Shown piece by piece: positions 1 through 25,679 of a stretch of DNA of 64,000 nt. A program made the translations under genes and the position numbers. A model generated the notes under the pieces. It had not been told where the DNA came from. It saw nothing but the letters and a program-made list of their open reading frames with translations, and ran no database searches. The stretch is taken from IMG/VR virus record IMGVR_UViG_3300025016_000004; one strand, given 5' to 3'. This DNA comes from a virus. Lineage: Duplodnaviria > Caudoviricetes. Positions within the stretch are counted from its first letter, which is position 1, and each line of letters starts with the position of its first letter.

Positions 1-670
1 ACTTGTAAGTGTATTTATTATTATGAACAAGATTAGCTTTTATTATGAATTCTGTGTTTGATAAAGTTAATTTAACTTTTGTAGATTCAATACCACAACT
101 AGGGCAGCCTTTACCTCTAATATGATTATAAGGTTGTTGTTTAAATTCACCATGAATTGGACATATAATTGTAACTTTTGTTTTTGAATCTACATAATTA
201 ACTTTGATGTAATCATATTTATTACCATGGGTATTTTCAGATTTAATTAAAAAATCAGTTAATGTTTCTTTTATATTTTTACGTTCTAAATGACATTTTT
301 GACAACCCGATTTATAATGACCATTTGGTAATTGTTCAAAATCACCATGTTTGGGGCATGTTATTATTAATTTATTTTCAGAACCGTTATACACTGTTTT
401 AGAATAATTATATTTATTACCATGAGTGTTTTTAGCTTTAATTAAAAACTCATCTAAATTAGTAACTTTACCACCACATAAAACACATTTTTTATAACCT
501 CTTAAATGTTCAATAGGTGTTTGTTTAAAATAAATTAAATGTTCATTACATAGGATATCTATTGGTGTTTGACTATCTAGGTAATTCATTTTTGAATAAT
601 CGAATTTATTTTTGAATTTATTTTTAACCTTTTCTAAAAATTTATCAACCTTTTTAATATTTTTTTTCAT
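1..670 (-). CDS. Putative free-standing homing endonuclease, N-terminal Zn-binding CPxHG repeat array (partial, runs off window start)
   Basis: Not in ORF track. Manual reverse-strand translation from ATG at 670 is open to base 1: MKKNIKKVDKFLEKVKNKF...ILCNEH...ITCPKHGDF...IICPIHGEFKQQPYNHIRGKGCPSC. Same repeat unit as ORF 33305-34930. Confidence 0.8.
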   Translation of the reverse strand, partial: MKKNIKKVDKFLEKVKNKFKNKFDYSKMNYLDSQTPIDILCNEHLIYFKQTPIEHLRGYKKCVLCGGKVTNLDEFLIKAKNTHGNKYNYSKTVYNGSENKLIITCPKHGDFEQLPNGHYKSGCQKCHLERKNIKETLTDFLIKSENTHGNKYDYIKVNYVDSKTKVTIICPIHGEFKQQPYNHIRGKGCPSCGIESTKVKLTLSNTEFIIKANLVHNNKYTYK

Positions 671-2299: not shown

Positions 2300-3406
2300 A
2301 TGGAAAAACCAAATGTATTCCCAGCATCAAAAATGACTGATGCTATGAAGGAAGCCAATGAAACTGGCACAAAAATAGCTCAACAAGCTAAAGAAGAATT
2401 AGCTATCATCGAAAAACACAAATCTAAAGGTGAAATGGAGGCTCAAGCTCAAATGAATAAAGAAAGTCTTGAGCGTTTAGAAGAACAATTAAGATTAAGA
2501 GATGAATTAATCGCACAAAGAAAGGCTGAAGCTCAAGGTCTAGAAATTGAAGCACCAATTGATGTTAAACCTAAAGTAAGTTATTCACAACCTGAAACAA
2601 AAGCGCATAAAAAAATTGAATTATCTAATGAAGATAGATATGCGGCTTTAAGTACTCCACAAGAAGACGTGCCTTATGACCTACTTAAATTACCAAGTGA
2701 AGGGTTATTATACAAAAAAGGTAAAAGTGCCTTAAAAGTGGCTTATTTGAATGCTATGGATGAGAATATCATTACCAACCCAAATCTTTTAAAGTCAGGA
2801 AAGTTTTTAGAGATATTAATCAATAGAAAAATATTAGATACTAACATTAGATATAAAGATTTACATGTTGGTGATAGAAATGCAATTATGATTTGGTTAC
2901 GTTCTACAGGTTTTGGACCAATGTATAAAATTAAATTGAATGACCCTAACGATGATTATAAAGAATTTGAGGTTGAACTTGATTTATCTAAATTAGGAAT
3001 TAAACATTTAGGTGTAAAACCTGATGAAAATGGTCATTTTACATTTAAATTACCTGTTGCTCAAACAACAATAAAATTTAGACTATTAAATACTGGTGAT
3101 GTTGAAGATATTGAAACTCATTTGGATGAAATGTCTAAAGAAATGGGACCTGAATTTACTGACGCTTCAACATACACACTTTTAAAGCAAGTTGTTGCAG
3201 TTGAAGATGATTATGATTCTGAAACAGTTAAAAACTTTGTTGAACAAAAAATGAGACTTGGAGATGTGAGAGCATTTAGAAAGTATGTGAACGAAATTGA
3301 ATCTGGCATTGATATGAATATCACAGTCGAGACTCCTGGGGGTGGGTCCCTTGCCACGTTTCTTCCCCTTAACTTTTCATTTTTTTGGCCTGACCTTGGA
3401 ATATAA
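2300..3406 (+). CDS. Tail/baseplate-hub assembly chaperone (T4 gp26-like, lambda gpG-equivalent position)
   Basis: 368 aa; LPSEGLLY and AYLNAMDENII motifs, C-terminal FFWPD; lies between tube and tape-measure genes. Confidence 0.7.
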   Translation: MEKPNVFPASKMTDAMKEANETGTKIAQQAKEELAIIEKHKSKGEMEAQAQMNKESLERLEEQLRLRDELIAQRKAEAQGLEIEAPIDVKPKVSYSQPETKAHKKIELSNEDRYAALSTPQEDVPYDLLKLPSEGLLYKKGKSALKVAYLNAMDENIITNPNLLKSGKFLEILINRKILDTNIRYKDLHVGDRNAIMIWLRSTGFGPMYKIKLNDPNDDYKEFEVELDLSKLGIKHLGVKPDENGHFTFKLPVAQTTIKFRLLNTGDVEDIETHLDEMSKEMGPEFTDASTYTLLKQVVAVEDDYDSETVKNFVEQKMRLGDVRAFRKYVNEIESGIDMNITVETPGGGSLATFLPLNFSFFWPDLGI

Positions 3407-3614
3407 GAGGCAGTTATTGGAAGAAATTTATGTTTGTAGACAACATTTAGGGTTTTCTTATGAAGATTTAATGAGAATGCCAACTTATGAAAGACGATTC
3501 TTTATGGTTACGTTACAAAACGAAGCTATTGACGCTGAAGAACGTAGAAGTAGTGGTTCTAGAGTTACAAAAACAGGTAAATGGTCACAAACTAGGAAAT
3601 ATTCACCTAAATAA
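3381..3614 (+). CDS. gp51-like / gpT-like chaperone segment, probably expressed by frameshift from 2300..3406
   Basis: +1 frame reads FFGLTLEYKRQLLEEI...GFSYEDLMRMPTYERRFF. No ATG lies upstream of the conserved part (the track uses GTG 3342). The frames overlap at a T7 run (3380-3386). Confidence 0.6.
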   Translation, partial: FFGLTLEYKRQLLEEIYVCRQHLGFSYEDLMRMPTYERRFFMVTLQNEAIDAEERRSSGSRVTKTGKWSQTRKYSPK

Positions 3615-3616
3615 GA

Positions 3617-3642
3617 AAAGCCCTTAATTATTAGGGGTTTTT
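3617..3642 (+). terminator. Intrinsic terminator
   Basis: AAAGCCCTTAA-TTA-TTAGGGGTTTT hairpin right after stop 3614. Confidence 0.6.
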
Positions 3643-3644
3643 AT

Positions 3645-3968
3645 AAAACGGAGCATAAAACCCACCCACCGTTTTTACGTGGGTGGGATATAAGCGACAA
3701 AAAAACTTGACCTTTTAACTATAGAGTTGTATATTTACAAATAATAAGTTATCGATAACCAAGATAACCTGTTCTTTGATGTATGATATGTGGTTGGCAA
3801 ACAAGGTTTTGTTTGCCATAAAATCATGGAAAGCAAATGAAAAGAATTTTCATGTCTGAATGCGGGACGCATTTCGGACAATAAGCAAAAACAAGTGGAG
3901 GTGTTGTCGTTGGGCAAGTCAATGAAACTTGAAGCCCATCCATCACGAAGTGTGGATGGGTAGTTCAC
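3645..3968 (+). mobile_element. Non-autonomous IS200/IS605-family (TnpB-type) element, 324 bp, no ORF
   Basis: Preceded by TTTAT; left hairpin CCCACCCAC/GTGGGTGGG (3661-3687) with ATAAAA at its foot; right hairpin GCCCATCCA/TGGATGGGT (3934-3961) preceded by TTGAA and ending AGTTCAC; both ends are shared with the element at 60032-60082. Confidence 0.8.
3706..3738 (+). promoter_or_regulatory. Host-type promoter inside the IS605-like element
   Basis: TTGACC-17 bp-TATATT; also reads as cTTG-N20-TAtaTTTAC, a near match to the Bacteroidota -33/-7 pattern. Confidence 0.55.
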
Positions 3969-3995: not shown

Positions 3996-5216
3996 ATGAG
4001 TGATATGACATACGCATATAAAGTTATGGCTTCATTATTATTAGAAGCTGAACTAAAGGAAGTTTTACCAAATATACAACAAGAAAGTGTAATTAGATTG
4101 GTTTTAAAAGATAAATCTGAAAAAACATTTTTTGTTGAGTCAAATTTAGCTGGTAGAGTTATTATGGTTGATAAAAGTGATGGTAAAGAATACACTTTTA
4201 CCAAAGATGCGATTAGTGATGGTACTTTAACAATTTATAAATATGAAAAAAATTCACCAAGTGGTGAAGGTGCTAAAATCGTATTGAAAGTTGAAGAGTT
4301 TAGTACTGCTAAAAAAGGTGGCGAAATAAAACAAGTAGATATCGTTAAACCTATTGAAGAGAATCGTTTAGAGGAAAGAATGAATGAAATGAATGACATT
4401 ATAAAAACGGCTAAAAAAGGTTCTATAATCAACATTGCTTCAGAAGAAAAAATTGCTGAAAATGATGGTATAACAAATAATATTTTTTTAAGAGTTAATG
4501 AAATTACCCCTAAAAAATTAAGTTGTACGTTAGAAGATATCAATTCTGATGGTGAAAGTACTAAAATTAAAACTTTATTAAATACATTTAAAAATAGAAA
4601 TATATATATCAGCATTAATAGTTTAGTAAAAATTAAAAATAACGATTTAGTGTTAAATCTTTATAGGTCAGATAGAATTGTACAAATTACTGGGTTATTA
4701 AATATTGAAGTAGGTGGCGGTGGGGTTGATAACGGTGATAGTGATTACACACCAATGAGTAAACAAGAATTAATTGATAAAATCAAAAGTAGCCCACATA
4801 GTAAAGAATATTTAGAAGCTATGGATAAAACACCTGATTTTTGGGATACATTAATGAATGCATCACCAAAAGGTGTTAATCAATTAAACCAAATATTAGA
4901 TAAAGAGGTAACTAAAAATTCTTATTTAACCGTAGGAAGGCAAATTCAATTCGAAATAATTTCTGGGTCAGTTATAGTTGACAATAACATTAAATTATTG
5001 AATACTGATAAATTTAGAAGTCATAAATACCCTGGTAAAATAGAAAAAGGTAATATTATAATAAGTGGGCGTAGAAGAAGTACTAATGGACATTGGGAGT
5101 TAAAAATTTTAAAAGATTTAGGTGATGGTAATTTTAAAGTTAGGGTAAGTCATTGTGATATGGACCTTAATTGTAAAATAGTAGAGGATGAAGGCGCAAT
5201 AAGAATTGTTGAATAA
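3996..5216 (+). CDS. Hypothetical protein in tail module
   Basis: 406-aa open frame directly upstream of the tape-measure gene; no motif recognised. Confidence 0.8.
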   Translation: MSDMTYAYKVMASLLLEAELKEVLPNIQQESVIRLVLKDKSEKTFFVESNLAGRVIMVDKSDGKEYTFTKDAISDGTLTIYKYEKNSPSGEGAKIVLKVEEFSTAKKGGEIKQVDIVKPIEENRLEERMNEMNDIIKTAKKGSIINIASEEKIAENDGITNNIFLRVNEITPKKLSCTLEDINSDGESTKIKTLLNTFKNRNIYISINSLVKIKNNDLVLNLYRSDRIVQITGLLNIEVGGGGVDNGDSDYTPMSKQELIDKIKSSPHSKEYLEAMDKTPDFWDTLMNASPKGVNQLNQILDKEVTKNSYLTVGRQIQFEIISGSVIVDNNIKLLNTDKFRSHKYPGKIEKGNIIISGRRRSTNGHWELKILKDLGDGNFKVRVSHCDMDLNCKIVEDEGAIRIVE

Positions 5217-23228: not shown

Positions 23229-25679
23229 ATGAGTGACATCAACAAGCAAGATGGTTTTGGATTTTTAGGAATTCCTTACCAAAGAAGACTTATAACCCAA
23301 TTAATCACAGACCATAAATTTGCTACAAATATAATGGGGATAGTAGACCCAAACTACTTCACAGATTTATATTTGAGAATTATAGCATCTGAAATAAAAA
23401 ATGCGTTTGAGACTGATGAAGTTATACCAGATATTGAAAGCTTAGAATTTAGGTTAAATGGTAGAAAAGATAATGAAACTACTAAACTATATATCAAAGC
23501 ATCAATAGCTGAAATTAAAGATGGTAACCTGAACGATTCAGAATATGTTCAGGATATGGCCATGAAATTTTGTAAACAACAAGAATTAAAGAAATCAGTT
23601 CATGAAATTCAAGAAATAATAGATAAAGGTGATTTAGATTCATATGATGAATGTGAAGAAATATTAAAAAGAGCGTTAGAAGTCGGAAGTGATAAAGATT
23701 CTGGAATTGATGTTTTTTTTAATATTGAGGCAGTTCTAGAGGATGATTTTAGAAAACCAATACCTACAGGTATTGCTGGTTTAGATGATAAAATGGGTGG
23801 TGGTTTATCAAAAGGTGAATTGGGTGTTATATTAGCACCGTTTGGTGTTGGTAAAGCACAACCATTACATTCTAAAATATTAACACCTAATGGTTGGACT
23901 ACTATGGGTGAGATACAAGTTGGTGATGAAGTTATAAGTAGGGATGGTAAAGCGACTAAAGTCACTGGAGTGTTTCCACAAGGCGTTAGACCAATTTATG
24001 AGGTTAGATTTAATGATAATACTAAAACTTTATGTGATGCTGAACATTTATGGTCAGTTAATACAATCAATCAACGAAATAGAAAAACTAAAAAAAATGG
24101 TGTGATGGTTAAATTAGAACCTGATAATTCATTTAAAACTTTAAAAACTATTGATATGGTTGATAAAGTTAGGGTTTGGGGTAATAAGCGTTTAAATTAT
24201 AAAATACCAAATATCTTACCCGTAAATTTTAATAAAAATGAATTAATTATTAACCCATATTTATTAGGTGTTATATTAGGTGATGGATGTATAACTGAAC
24301 ATAATCAACCCCATATTACAACTAAAGATGTTGAATTAATAGATGAAATTGAAAAATATCATAATAATATTAATATTACTGAGCAAACACGAATGTTTGA
24401 AGTTTACAAAAATGGGAAATTTGAAAATGTAGAAAGAACCTTAACAAAAATTTCTTTATTAGGTATTAAAGATGATTTAAGTAGTTTAAAATTATATGGT
24501 TGTAATTCAGAAACTAAATTTATCCCACATAACTATCTATATTCTTCAGTTGAAGATAGAGTTTCGTTATTACAAGGATTAGTAGATACTGATGGTTATA
24601 TTGGTAACAATAGAATTGAGATTTGTACCGTATCAAAAATGATGTCGGAACAAATCAAAGAATTAGTATTGTCATTAGGTGGTACTTGTAATATAGGTGT
24701 AAAAATTGGTAGTTATTTGAAAGAGGGGGTTAAAATTAGATGTAAAAAAGCATATCGAGTTTATTTTAGTTTACCAACACAAATAAAATTTAATCCATGT
24801 AGACTTGAAAGGAAGTTGAATAATTTAAGTAAAAGGTCTAAATATGCTAATAATAAATTTATTACTAGTATTGAATATTCACATGAGGAAGAAGCTCAAT
24901 GTATTATGGTTGATAATCCAGAACATTTATATATAACTGATGATTATATAGTAACACATAACACAACCATGGTCACCAAAATAGCCAACGAAGCTTTTAA
25001 TCATGGATATAATGTTCTTCAAATATTTTTTGAAGATATTCCTAAAGTGATTCAAAGAAAACATTTATCATGTTGGACTGGGATAGCTCAAAACGATTTA
25101 CCATTAAAAGCAAACAGACCCATCATTGATGAAGTCATGAAAGAAAAAAATGATGGTAAAGGGTATTTAGAATTGAAAAAATTTCCTAGTGATGGAACAA
25201 CAATTCCTATGATTAAAAATTATATTAGAAAACTAGCAGCCGCTGGTAGAAAACCTGATGTAATTTTAATTGATTACATTGATTGTGTATCATCAACCAA
25301 ACATTACGATAAGGGATATGAGGCTGAAGGGCCAATTATGAGACAATTCGAATCATTATTGAGCGAATTTGATTTGGTTGGATGGACTGCAATTCAAGGT
25401 AATCGATGTGTTTCATTAGATACTATTATTGAAGATTCTAAACGTGGTAAAATTGAAATTAGAGATGTTAAGTTAGGGGATGAAATTTTAACTCATAAGG
25501 GTTACAAAAAAGTTACCCATATATTTCCTATTGCTAAGCAACCAGTTTATAAAATAAAATTAAAATCTGGTAAAACCATTAAAGTATCTAAAAAACATAA
25601 GTTCCCAACAAAAGATGGTGAAATGTTATCAATTGAAGATGGTTTAAAAGTTGGAAACATACTTTTAGGTAAAAAATAA
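23229..25679 (+). CDS. dnaB: Replicative helicase DnaB/gp41-like, N-terminal fragment (contiguous intein plus split-intein N half)
   Basis: Walker A APFGVGK|TT interrupted by an intein; Walker B ILIDYID; ends in a 90-aa IntN after TAIQGNR. Confidence 0.9.
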   Translation: MSDINKQDGFGFLGIPYQRRLITQLITDHKFATNIMGIVDPNYFTDLYLRIIASEIKNAFETDEVIPDIESLEFRLNGRKDNETTKLYIKASIAEIKDGNLNDSEYVQDMAMKFCKQQELKKSVHEIQEIIDKGDLDSYDECEEILKRALEVGSDKDSGIDVFFNIEAVLEDDFRKPIPTGIAGLDDKMGGGLSKGELGVILAPFGVGKAQPLHSKILTPNGWTTMGEIQVGDEVISRDGKATKVTGVFPQGVRPIYEVRFNDNTKTLCDAEHLWSVNTINQRNRKTKKNGVMVKLEPDNSFKTLKTIDMVDKVRVWGNKRLNYKIPNILPVNFNKNELIINPYLLGVILGDGCITEHNQPHITTKDVELIDEIEKYHNNINITEQTRMFEVYKNGKFENVERTLTKISLLGIKDDLSSLKLYGCNSETKFIPHNYLYSSVEDRVSLLQGLVDTDGYIGNNRIEICTVSKMMSEQIKELVLSLGGTCNIGVKIGSYLKEGVKIRCKKAYRVYFSLPTQIKFNPCRLERKLNNLSKRSKYANNKFITSIEYSHEEEAQCIMVDNPEHLYITDDYIVTHNTTMVTKIANEAFNHGYNVLQIFFEDIPKVIQRKHLSCWTGIAQNDLPLKANRPIIDEVMKEKNDGKGYLELKKFPSDGTTIPMIKNYIRKLAAAGRKPDVILIDYIDCVSSTKHYDKGYEAEGPIMRQFESLLSEFDLVGWTAIQGNRCVSLDTIIEDSKRGKIEIRDVKLGDEILTHKGYKKVTHIFPIAKQPVYKIKLKSGKTIKVSKKHKFPTKDGEMLSIEDGLKVGNILLGKK
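23856..24962 (+). mobile_element. Class 3 intein (369 aa) with LAGLIDADG endonuclease in the DnaB P-loop
   Basis: Starts AQPL (Ala1); block B CDAEHLW, block F AQCIMV, block G VTHN|T give the Trp-Cys-Thr triplet; LLGVILGDG and LQGLVDTDG motifs. Confidence 0.88.
25407..25676 (+). mobile_element. Split intein N half (DnaB), 90 aa
   Basis: Block A CVSLDT, block B VSKKHKFPT, ends GLKVGNILLGKK then stop. Confidence 0.88.

Follow-up and report, generated by a model that had tools for sequence, protein, structure and literature searches.

The window analysed here is a stretch of 64,000 nucleotides of viral DNA (IMG/VR record IMGVR_UViG_3300025016_000004). Near its beginning, between a tail tube gene and a gene for a tape-measure-like protein, lies a gene whose reading frame closes at 3406 and whose last codons overlap a second segment that is open in the +1 frame. 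This arrangement raises the question of whether a single tail chaperone gene gives rise to two proteins of different length and, if so, by what kind of frame change, at which bases, and in what relation to the chaperones of other long-tailed phages. The first-pass annotation of this DNA had proposed a programmed +1 or -2 frameshift linking two tail chaperones that resemble gp26 and gp51 of phage T4. Judging from the sequence comparisons described below, one tail chaperone gene very probably makes both a short and a long protein via a +1 slip near the gene end.

The junction and its surroundings

The features of the locus are collected in Table 1. The short form consists of an N-terminal coiled coil (residues 15-78), a core (112-362) and the tail FFWPDLGI; its frame reads TCA TTT TTT TGG CCT GAC CTT GGA ATA TAA, so that the protein ends in SFFWPDLGI at the stop codon 3404-3406. 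The +1 frame is open from GGC 3387 (GGC CTG ACC TTG GAA TAT AAG) and encodes the peptide GLTLEYKRQLLEEIY...MPTYERRFF..., and with TGGC read as one step a +1 fusion of 437 aa (P0003) is obtained. The -1 frame closes two codons past the T7 run (TTG GCC TGA), and the geometry thus excludes a -1 shift, as had been pointed out in the first-pass annotation, whose account of the frames, of the T7 run at 3380-3386, of the stop at 3406 and of the 437-aa fusion agrees with the sequence.

Table 1. Features of the chaperone locus and of its neighbours, in window coordinates
Feature	Coordinates	Strand	Remarks
Tail tube protein gene, 162 aa	747..1235	+	phrog_4542, E 9e-29; Pfam Phage_T4_gp19 weak
Zero-frame ORF, short form, 368 aa, gp26-like	2300..3406	+	phrog_150 baseplate hub, positions 8-215 of 282
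GGGGGTGGG, Shine-Dalgarno-like purine run, Gly codons	3338..3346	+	alignment columns 19-27; GGR, not usual GGT, at Gly347
TTT CTT C, candidate +1 slip site (a)	3359..3365	+	P-site UUU to UUC; non-preferred CUU in A site
T7 run TTT TTT T, candidate +1 slip site (b)	3380..3386	+	invariant in 106 distinct junctions
+1-frame extension, 75 aa, GLTLEYK...MPTYERRFF..., gp51-type C-terminus	3387..3614	+	including stop TAA 3612-3614
406-aa ORF of unknown family	3996..5216	+	between chaperone gene and tape measure
Tape-measure-like protein, 867 aa	5225..7828	+	phrog_28, phrog_23574 tail length tape measure; glycine zipper

The junction is strongly conserved. Eighty related loci were fetched from IMG/VR, of which 76 reach the gene end, and in all 76 of these complete loci the N-part ends at residue 362 and the C-part begins 2 nt further on, in the +1 frame, which bears out the proposal of a programmed +1 shift in a gene at the chaperone position upstream of the tape measure. 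It had also been suggested that homologous loci be aligned for a conserved T7 run and +1 offset, and both are kept in 106 distinct junctions (60 from a first scan and 46 from a second, at 38-72% identity), which retain TTTTTTTGGCCT, with TTT TTT TGG CCT unvarying across both sets. A search of 5.8 billion proteins yielded 1044 homologues, the best 120 of which (41-84% identity, on contigs of up to 360 kb) all terminate at the shift point and cover 82-84% of the fusion. Five distant phages, each with a tube gene, a gp26-like gene and a tape measure, likewise continue in +1: the Microcystis phage Mel-JY01, taken as outgroup (AAC TTT TTT TGG CCT), the Flavobacterium immuto phages (TTT CTT TGG CCT), the uncultured 484-kb phage LR756508 (TTT CTA TTC CCT), Bacillus phage HSE3 (TTC TTT CGT) and Thornevirus LIS04 (TTT TTT AGT). 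The joined gene is annotated in none of the records of these five phages, and in every public record examined the extension has been left out or called a small hypothetical protein.

The order of tube, chaperone, an intervening gene and tape measure is the same in six phage records, and the tube protein, which is 83-97% identical in 46 relatives, is always encoded 54-2110 nt upstream of the chaperone gene. The 406-aa ORF that precedes the tape measure matched no family in Pfam or PHROG. The interval between tube and chaperone genes (1236-2299) holds small ORFs at 1450-1812 (phrog_15610), 1775-1969 and 1969-2238 and looks like an insertion hot spot, and an ORF resembling HNH or homing endonucleases (2-670, minus strand; phrog_681, E 3.6e-36) lies just upstream of the tube gene. 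The 380-nt gap from the extension to the next gene contains a repeated element, with loose contig ends at 3646, 3687 and 3698; short contigs of one run match only 3646-3698 and then pass into unrelated sequence. Farther along, an 816-aa ORF (23229-25679), whose P-loop region matches PHROGs of both DnaB-like helicase/primase and large terminase, is probably a replicative helicase-primase, so that the window passes from tail genes into replication genes.

Family identity of the short and long forms

The affiliation of both parts of the fusion is given by a single profile. The short form matches phrog_150 with an E-value of 4.3e-7, and in the +1 fusion the match extends to positions 8-276 of 282, at E 1.6e-8. 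The T4 proteins divide in the same manner, gp26 (208 aa) matching positions 14-235 of phrog_150 and gp51 (249 aa) positions 13-280, with residues 147-246 of gp51, its C-terminal 100, also matching phrog_634. This pattern of phrog_150 and phrog_634 matches makes the zero-frame product a gp26-like short form and the +1 fusion a gp51-like long form. The link to gp26 and gp51 drawn in the first-pass annotation thus holds as regards the family, phrog_150. It does not hold as a link between two different chaperone genes, since gp26 and gp51 are themselves paralogues (BLASTP 2e-6), and what had been taken for a gp51-like second gene has a gp51-like C-terminus indeed but is an extension of about 75 aa that marks the long form, and no separate gene.

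Further matches concern the family at large or its extensions. PF12322 (T4_baseplate) is precomputed on the homologue cluster, and a Pfam scan of the 368-aa short form at E<=0.01 listed no family. Among the extensions of 49 relatives, 5 match phrog_634 (best E 2.6e-5), a profile not matched by the window's own extension, and hhalign aligns the profile of the relatives' extensions with residues 223-247 of T4 gp51 at E 0.017. Comparison of the fusion with T4 gp26 by BLASTP, and of the family with single T4 sequences by hhalign, is not significant by itself, and the link to the T4 proteins therefore rests on the PHROG profiles. The extension is matched by Pfam DUF6760, a family of unknown function, in 21 of the 49 relatives (best E 1.6e-5), and DUF6760 may be the long-form C-terminal module of tail chaperones.

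The two parts also occur as one natural, uninterrupted protein. When the extension profile was searched exhaustively with HMMER, 544 proteins matched, almost all being gene-caller fragments of 51-117 aa with scattered start positions in the profile, and it was this search that supplied a long-form relative of 293 aa (P0231); a homologue search with the same profile limited to longer proteins gave no match. The fusion aligns with this relative in a single HSP (residues 126-408 against 3-275, E 8e-35), in which there is no gap between SFF and GL at the junction and six residues separate the conserved Pro from the conserved Gly. The spacing is thus that of a +1 and not of a -2 shift, since the latter would add a residue. 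On the same contig (L087), a short paralogue of 252 aa lies directly upstream of the long form (BLASTP 1e-16 between the two), matches phrog_150 at positions 10-236 and ends in FFYPNTN; the pair sits between the tube gene and a tape-measure-like gene, with a 297-aa ORF in place of the 406-aa ORF, and from its sequence this is a tandem two-gene version of the chaperone locus. In one other relative, a 335-aa protein (P0192) carries an extension-like segment, LNYKTYLLEEIYYC..., at its N-terminus, which may mean that the extension frame there continues into the next gene, or that the gene was called wrongly.

The predicted fold points in the same direction, if faintly. The model of the core (residues 112-368, pLDDT 90) matches predicted T4-like baseplate hub subunit and assembly proteins in BFVD with E-values down to 1e-22. 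Its matches among solved structures are weak, all with Z below 6 and short of the tool's reliable level: over core residues 11-104 the best are 3fgx_B (Z 5.6, rmsd 4.5, 83 aligned), YqbN of B. subtilis (3klu_A, Z 5.1) and the tail assembly chaperone of HK97 (2ob9, Z 4.5-4.8), followed by 5ir0_B (Z 3.9), after which the score drops to 3.2. In its prophage, yqbN presumably stands between the genes for the tube and the tape measure. The likeness of the modelled core to these small phage and prophage proteins may be called weak but on target. With the whole model, Foldseek found nothing significant in the PDB, and a wide structure comparison was set aside as being dominated by the N-terminal coiled coil; a search of solved structures with query A1 gave no match. 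A complex prediction for the tail tube protein with the 75-aa extension returned 'no answer', with a score of 0.00.

Candidate slip sites and rival explanations

These comparisons can be brought together in a proposal for how the locus works. The phage, an uncultured giant myophage with a genome of some 315 kb, would encode its tail assembly (baseplate-hub) chaperone in the gene at 2300-3406. There, most ribosomes would stop at 3406 and release a short form of 368 aa, equivalent to T4 gp26 and lambda gpG, and a minority would slip one base forward within 3359-3386, the peptidyl-tRNA-Phe re-pairing from UUU to an overlapping UUU or UUC, and read on to 3614. The resulting 437-aa long form, with its extra 75 residues equivalent to the C-terminus of T4 gp51, would be the counterpart of lambda gpGT, and the two forms may act on the tape measure or the hub as G and GT do. 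A ribosomal slip is the most likely event, and we consider it likely overall that one gene and a ribosomal +1 slip within 3359-3386 together provide the short and the long chaperone.

Two P-site codons in this interval are able to re-pair one base forward, namely UUU_C at 3359-3362 and UUU_U within 3380-3386. The first-pass annotation had placed the slip on the T7 run, and this run is indeed invariant in the 106 junctions; TTT serves for both of its Phe residues in 60 of 60 loci, compared with about 80% TTT at other conserved Phe columns. A slip at the upstream UUU CUU would, however, force the same T7 run, because Phe-Phe is then encoded in both frames, and TTT CTT is equally good as a candidate slip site. 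It is present in 58 of 60 and in 46 of 46 loci of the two scans, the remaining two loci carrying TTT C one codon later. Around it, synonymous choice is similarly constrained: Leu355 is CTT in 58 of 58 loci, with TTA mostly used at other conserved Leu columns, Asn358 is AAC in 44 of 44 (other Asn columns being 57-80% AAT), Pro356 is CCC in 35 of 60, and in 43 of 60 the codon that follows ends in C.

The +1 frame upstream of the junction accounts for TTT CTT as a second candidate site, for downstream of it this frame is free of stops and conserved. Within the nine codons before GGC, no +1-frame stop occurs in any of the 60 loci, against 41.7 expected from resampling of synonymous codons, and in three control regions further upstream the observed +1 stops agree with those expected. 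The +1-frame residues upstream of the junction are conserved as F, F, x, L (60 of 60), T, S, x, F, F, and in 20 loci a +1 stop stands exactly at codon -12, just ahead of the stop-free stretch. A UUU followed by a non-preferred codon that begins with C is also seen at the junctions of the Flavobacterium phages (TTT CTT), LR756508 (TTT CTA) and HSE3 (TTT CGT). The stop-free upstream +1 frame and the second candidate slip site are new here. It is possible, and we hold this tentatively, that the slip occurs not, or not only, on the T7 run and that it falls 21 nt upstream, at the invariant UUU CUU, as a hungry-codon site.

Pointing to the T run are the outgroup Mel-JY01, in which it is the sole slippery site, and Pro356, which is invariant in frame 0 and is Pro in the +1 frame at 35 of 60 loci only, the natural long form having Pro. 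Both sites may also be used, their products being equal in length. The junction peptide expected from a slip on the T run is FLPLNFSFFGLTLEYK, that from a slip at UUU CUU is FFPLTFHFFGLTLEYK, and that from a -2 shift is FLPLNFSFFFGLTLEYK. If the slip takes place at UUU CUU, one piece of DNA would be read in two frames, as the final 14 codons of the short form and as residues 355-368 in the long form, and selection would keep both readings, FLPLNxxFFWP... and FFxLTSxFFGL.... In that case the gp26/gp51 family, together with relatives that have a -1 site or two genes, would form a natural series in which at least three ways of decoding have answered a single requirement for a short and a long chaperone. 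Over about 40 nt ahead of the T run (3338-3375), synonymous sites are frozen (GGR at Gly347, TTT CTT, CCC, nTT, AAC, nTC), in part because the +1 frame is open; the preference for C over T at positions equivalent to 3376, and the GGRGG run, are not explained by the open frame.

The codons and surroundings of the two sites differ in what they offer a slipping ribosome. Codon usage in the window, per 1000, is 9.5 for UGG, 3.0 for GGC, 11.0 for CUU, 8.2 for UUC and 56.7 for UUA. At site (a) the A-site codon is CUU and the +1 codon UUC, the usual Leu codon being UUA, and at site (b) the A-site UGG is more frequent than the +1 codon GGC, so that the T7 site lacks the usual hungry-codon logic. No tRNA genes were found in the window. 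No conserved RNA structure was found downstream (RNAalifold -1.1 kcal/mol; mean z 0.14) or upstream of the junction. An upstream hairpin of GGRGG with CUUCC is not supported, as it pairs in 91.9% of cells, which is no better than in shuffled and slid controls, and shows no covariation. A Shine-Dalgarno-like element at the spacing found in prfB is absent, the only such run being GGRGG at 16 nt before site (a) and 37 nt before site (b), a distance too great for it to act as in prfB.

The same fusion could in principle arise during transcription, if RNA polymerase dropped one U or added two on the T7 run and the fused-frame mRNAs were translated normally. The product would be the same as that of a +1 ribosomal shift, no stimulatory RNA structure has been found, and TTTTTTT is invariant in the 106 junctions even at the synonymous third positions of both Phe codons. 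Phe-Phe in both frames would also force that invariance, however, and the stop-free, conserved +1 frame upstream of the run would not be needed. Seven T are short for efficient slippage by bacterial-type polymerases, and distant relatives keep the +1 join with interrupted runs (TTT CTT T, TTT CTA and TTC TTT C); it is because the Flavobacterium phages, LR756508 and HSE3 do so without a long homopolymer that we favour a ribosomal event and regard transcriptional slippage as unlikely. The first-pass annotation had left the shift as +1 or -2, and of these the +1 is the one favoured. Were the ribosome to move by -2 on the T run, in the manner of phage Mu, one extra Phe would be added (SFFFGL, in the junction ...FSFFFGLTLEYK); six or more U do permit re-pairing two bases back, and the first Phe codon is always TTT, but the 293-aa natural long form has the +1 spacing, ungapped, and in relatives without a U run such a shift is impossible, which leaves it highly unlikely here.

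There might also be no fusion, the extension being made as a small separate protein from GTG 3342, from TTG 3396 or by reinitiation after 3406. Both start codons are present in the window, a GTG stands at the same place in 34 of 60 loci, and depositors annotate a small ORF in some phages. The GTG at 3342, however, arises as a by-product where Gly codons are conserved, and 26 of the 60 loci lack it. When the +1 frame is followed from its upstream stop as far as the tenth codon beyond the junction, ATG, GTG and TTG are all absent in 18 of the 60 loci and ATG is absent in 57. The extension has, as had been observed at the outset, no ATG of its own, and no conserved start of any kind. Conservation of the +1 peptide begins exactly at the junction, or upstream of it; the called fragments have scattered starts; and the fusion corresponds to one natural single protein and to one PHROG profile. 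Independent initiation is on these grounds extremely improbable. A last reading is that the sequence is wrong, through faulty reads or assembly, or that the gene is a decaying pseudogene. Certain sequencing chemistries do make errors in homopolymers, but the independently assembled contigs from four metagenome runs, with aquifer, groundwater and hot spring as sources and depths of 6.6 to 77, are identical over 3200-3700 and free of indels at the T run, the +1 offset recurs in 106 distinct loci, and purifying selection acts on both the N-part and the C-part; the probability of this reading is next to nil, and the comparative data refute it already. A ribosomal +1 slip thus remains the preferred account of the junction.

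Relation to known tail-chaperone systems

The production of short and long tail chaperones by frameshifting is, to our knowledge, a near-universal rule of long-tailed phages. Work by Levin et al. in 1993 and by Xu, Hendrix and Duda in 2004 is said to have described lambda gpG/gpGT and the conservation of the tail assembly chaperone frameshift; other such pairs are E/E+E' of P2 and gp41/42 of Mu, and for a long time T4-like phages did not fit the rule, before gp26 and gp51 came to be seen as a version of it with two genes. The present locus resembles lambda G/GT in lying between the tube gene and the tape measure, in having overlapping frames of which the second is without its own start, in its conserved slippery site and in the logic of a short and a long form. 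Unlike lambda, it would use a +1 shift instead of a -1 shift on an X XXY YYZ heptamer (or, in Mu, a -2 shift), it encodes a larger protein with a core of about 250 aa, and it has no detectable sequence homology to G/GT and no downstream structure.

Forward shifts are known elsewhere. In Escherichia coli, prfB has a programmed +1 frameshift at CUU UGA C, and cps and tsh of Listeria phage PSA are reportedly made by +1 programmed frameshifts (Zimmer et al. are said to have described them in 2003). The likeness to prfB and PSA lies in a P-site tRNA that would re-pair one base forward on a codon of the YUU_Y type, and the Flavobacterium relative has CUU U in the equivalent place. The differences from prfB are that the A site here holds no stop codon, being CUU at site (a) or UGG at site (b), and that no Shine-Dalgarno-like element stands 3 nt upstream. 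A site that has neither a stop codon nor a Shine-Dalgarno-like stimulator nor an RNA structure would offer a clean natural test of forward ribosome slippage in bacteria.

Table 2 of Leiman et al. 2010 (PMC3004832) gives T4 gp26 and gp51 as hub assembly chaperones. Their identification as the tail assembly chaperones of the T4-like phages is credited in PMC10885494 and PMC12846349 to Vladimirov, Gautam and Davidson (Virology 2022;566:9-15), and the latter cites this work also for TAC-N and TAC-NC isoforms and for poly-T slippery sequences that T4-like phages have in their TAC-N genes. By these citations, the connection of gp26/gp51 with the G/GT scheme that the first-pass annotation had drawn is not new. 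According to the relevant part of PMC10885494, some of these phages have a short gene and a long fused gene, with no frameshifting. The tandem 252-aa and 293-aa paralogues found here likewise need no recoding; by that account, those phages differ from the present locus in their protein family and in that the window uses one gene.

With T4 itself, the present locus shares the family (phrog_150; PF12322), a short and long pair that differ by a C-terminal extension (phrog_634) and a role in hub and tape-measure assembly, which for the window is suggested by sequence. It differs in that the paralogous genes of T4 are two separate ones, transcribed divergently and without recoding, where the window would have one gene and a +1 shift, and in that the proteins of the clade described here have an additional coiled coil of about 110 aa at the N-terminus. 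An uncultured clade of giant phages would thus equip the gp26/gp51 family with a single gene and the rarer, forward direction of shift, and as far as sequence can tell, the junction is a real, strongly conserved recoding site, at which the tail-chaperone frameshift takes a +1 form within the gp26/gp51 family.
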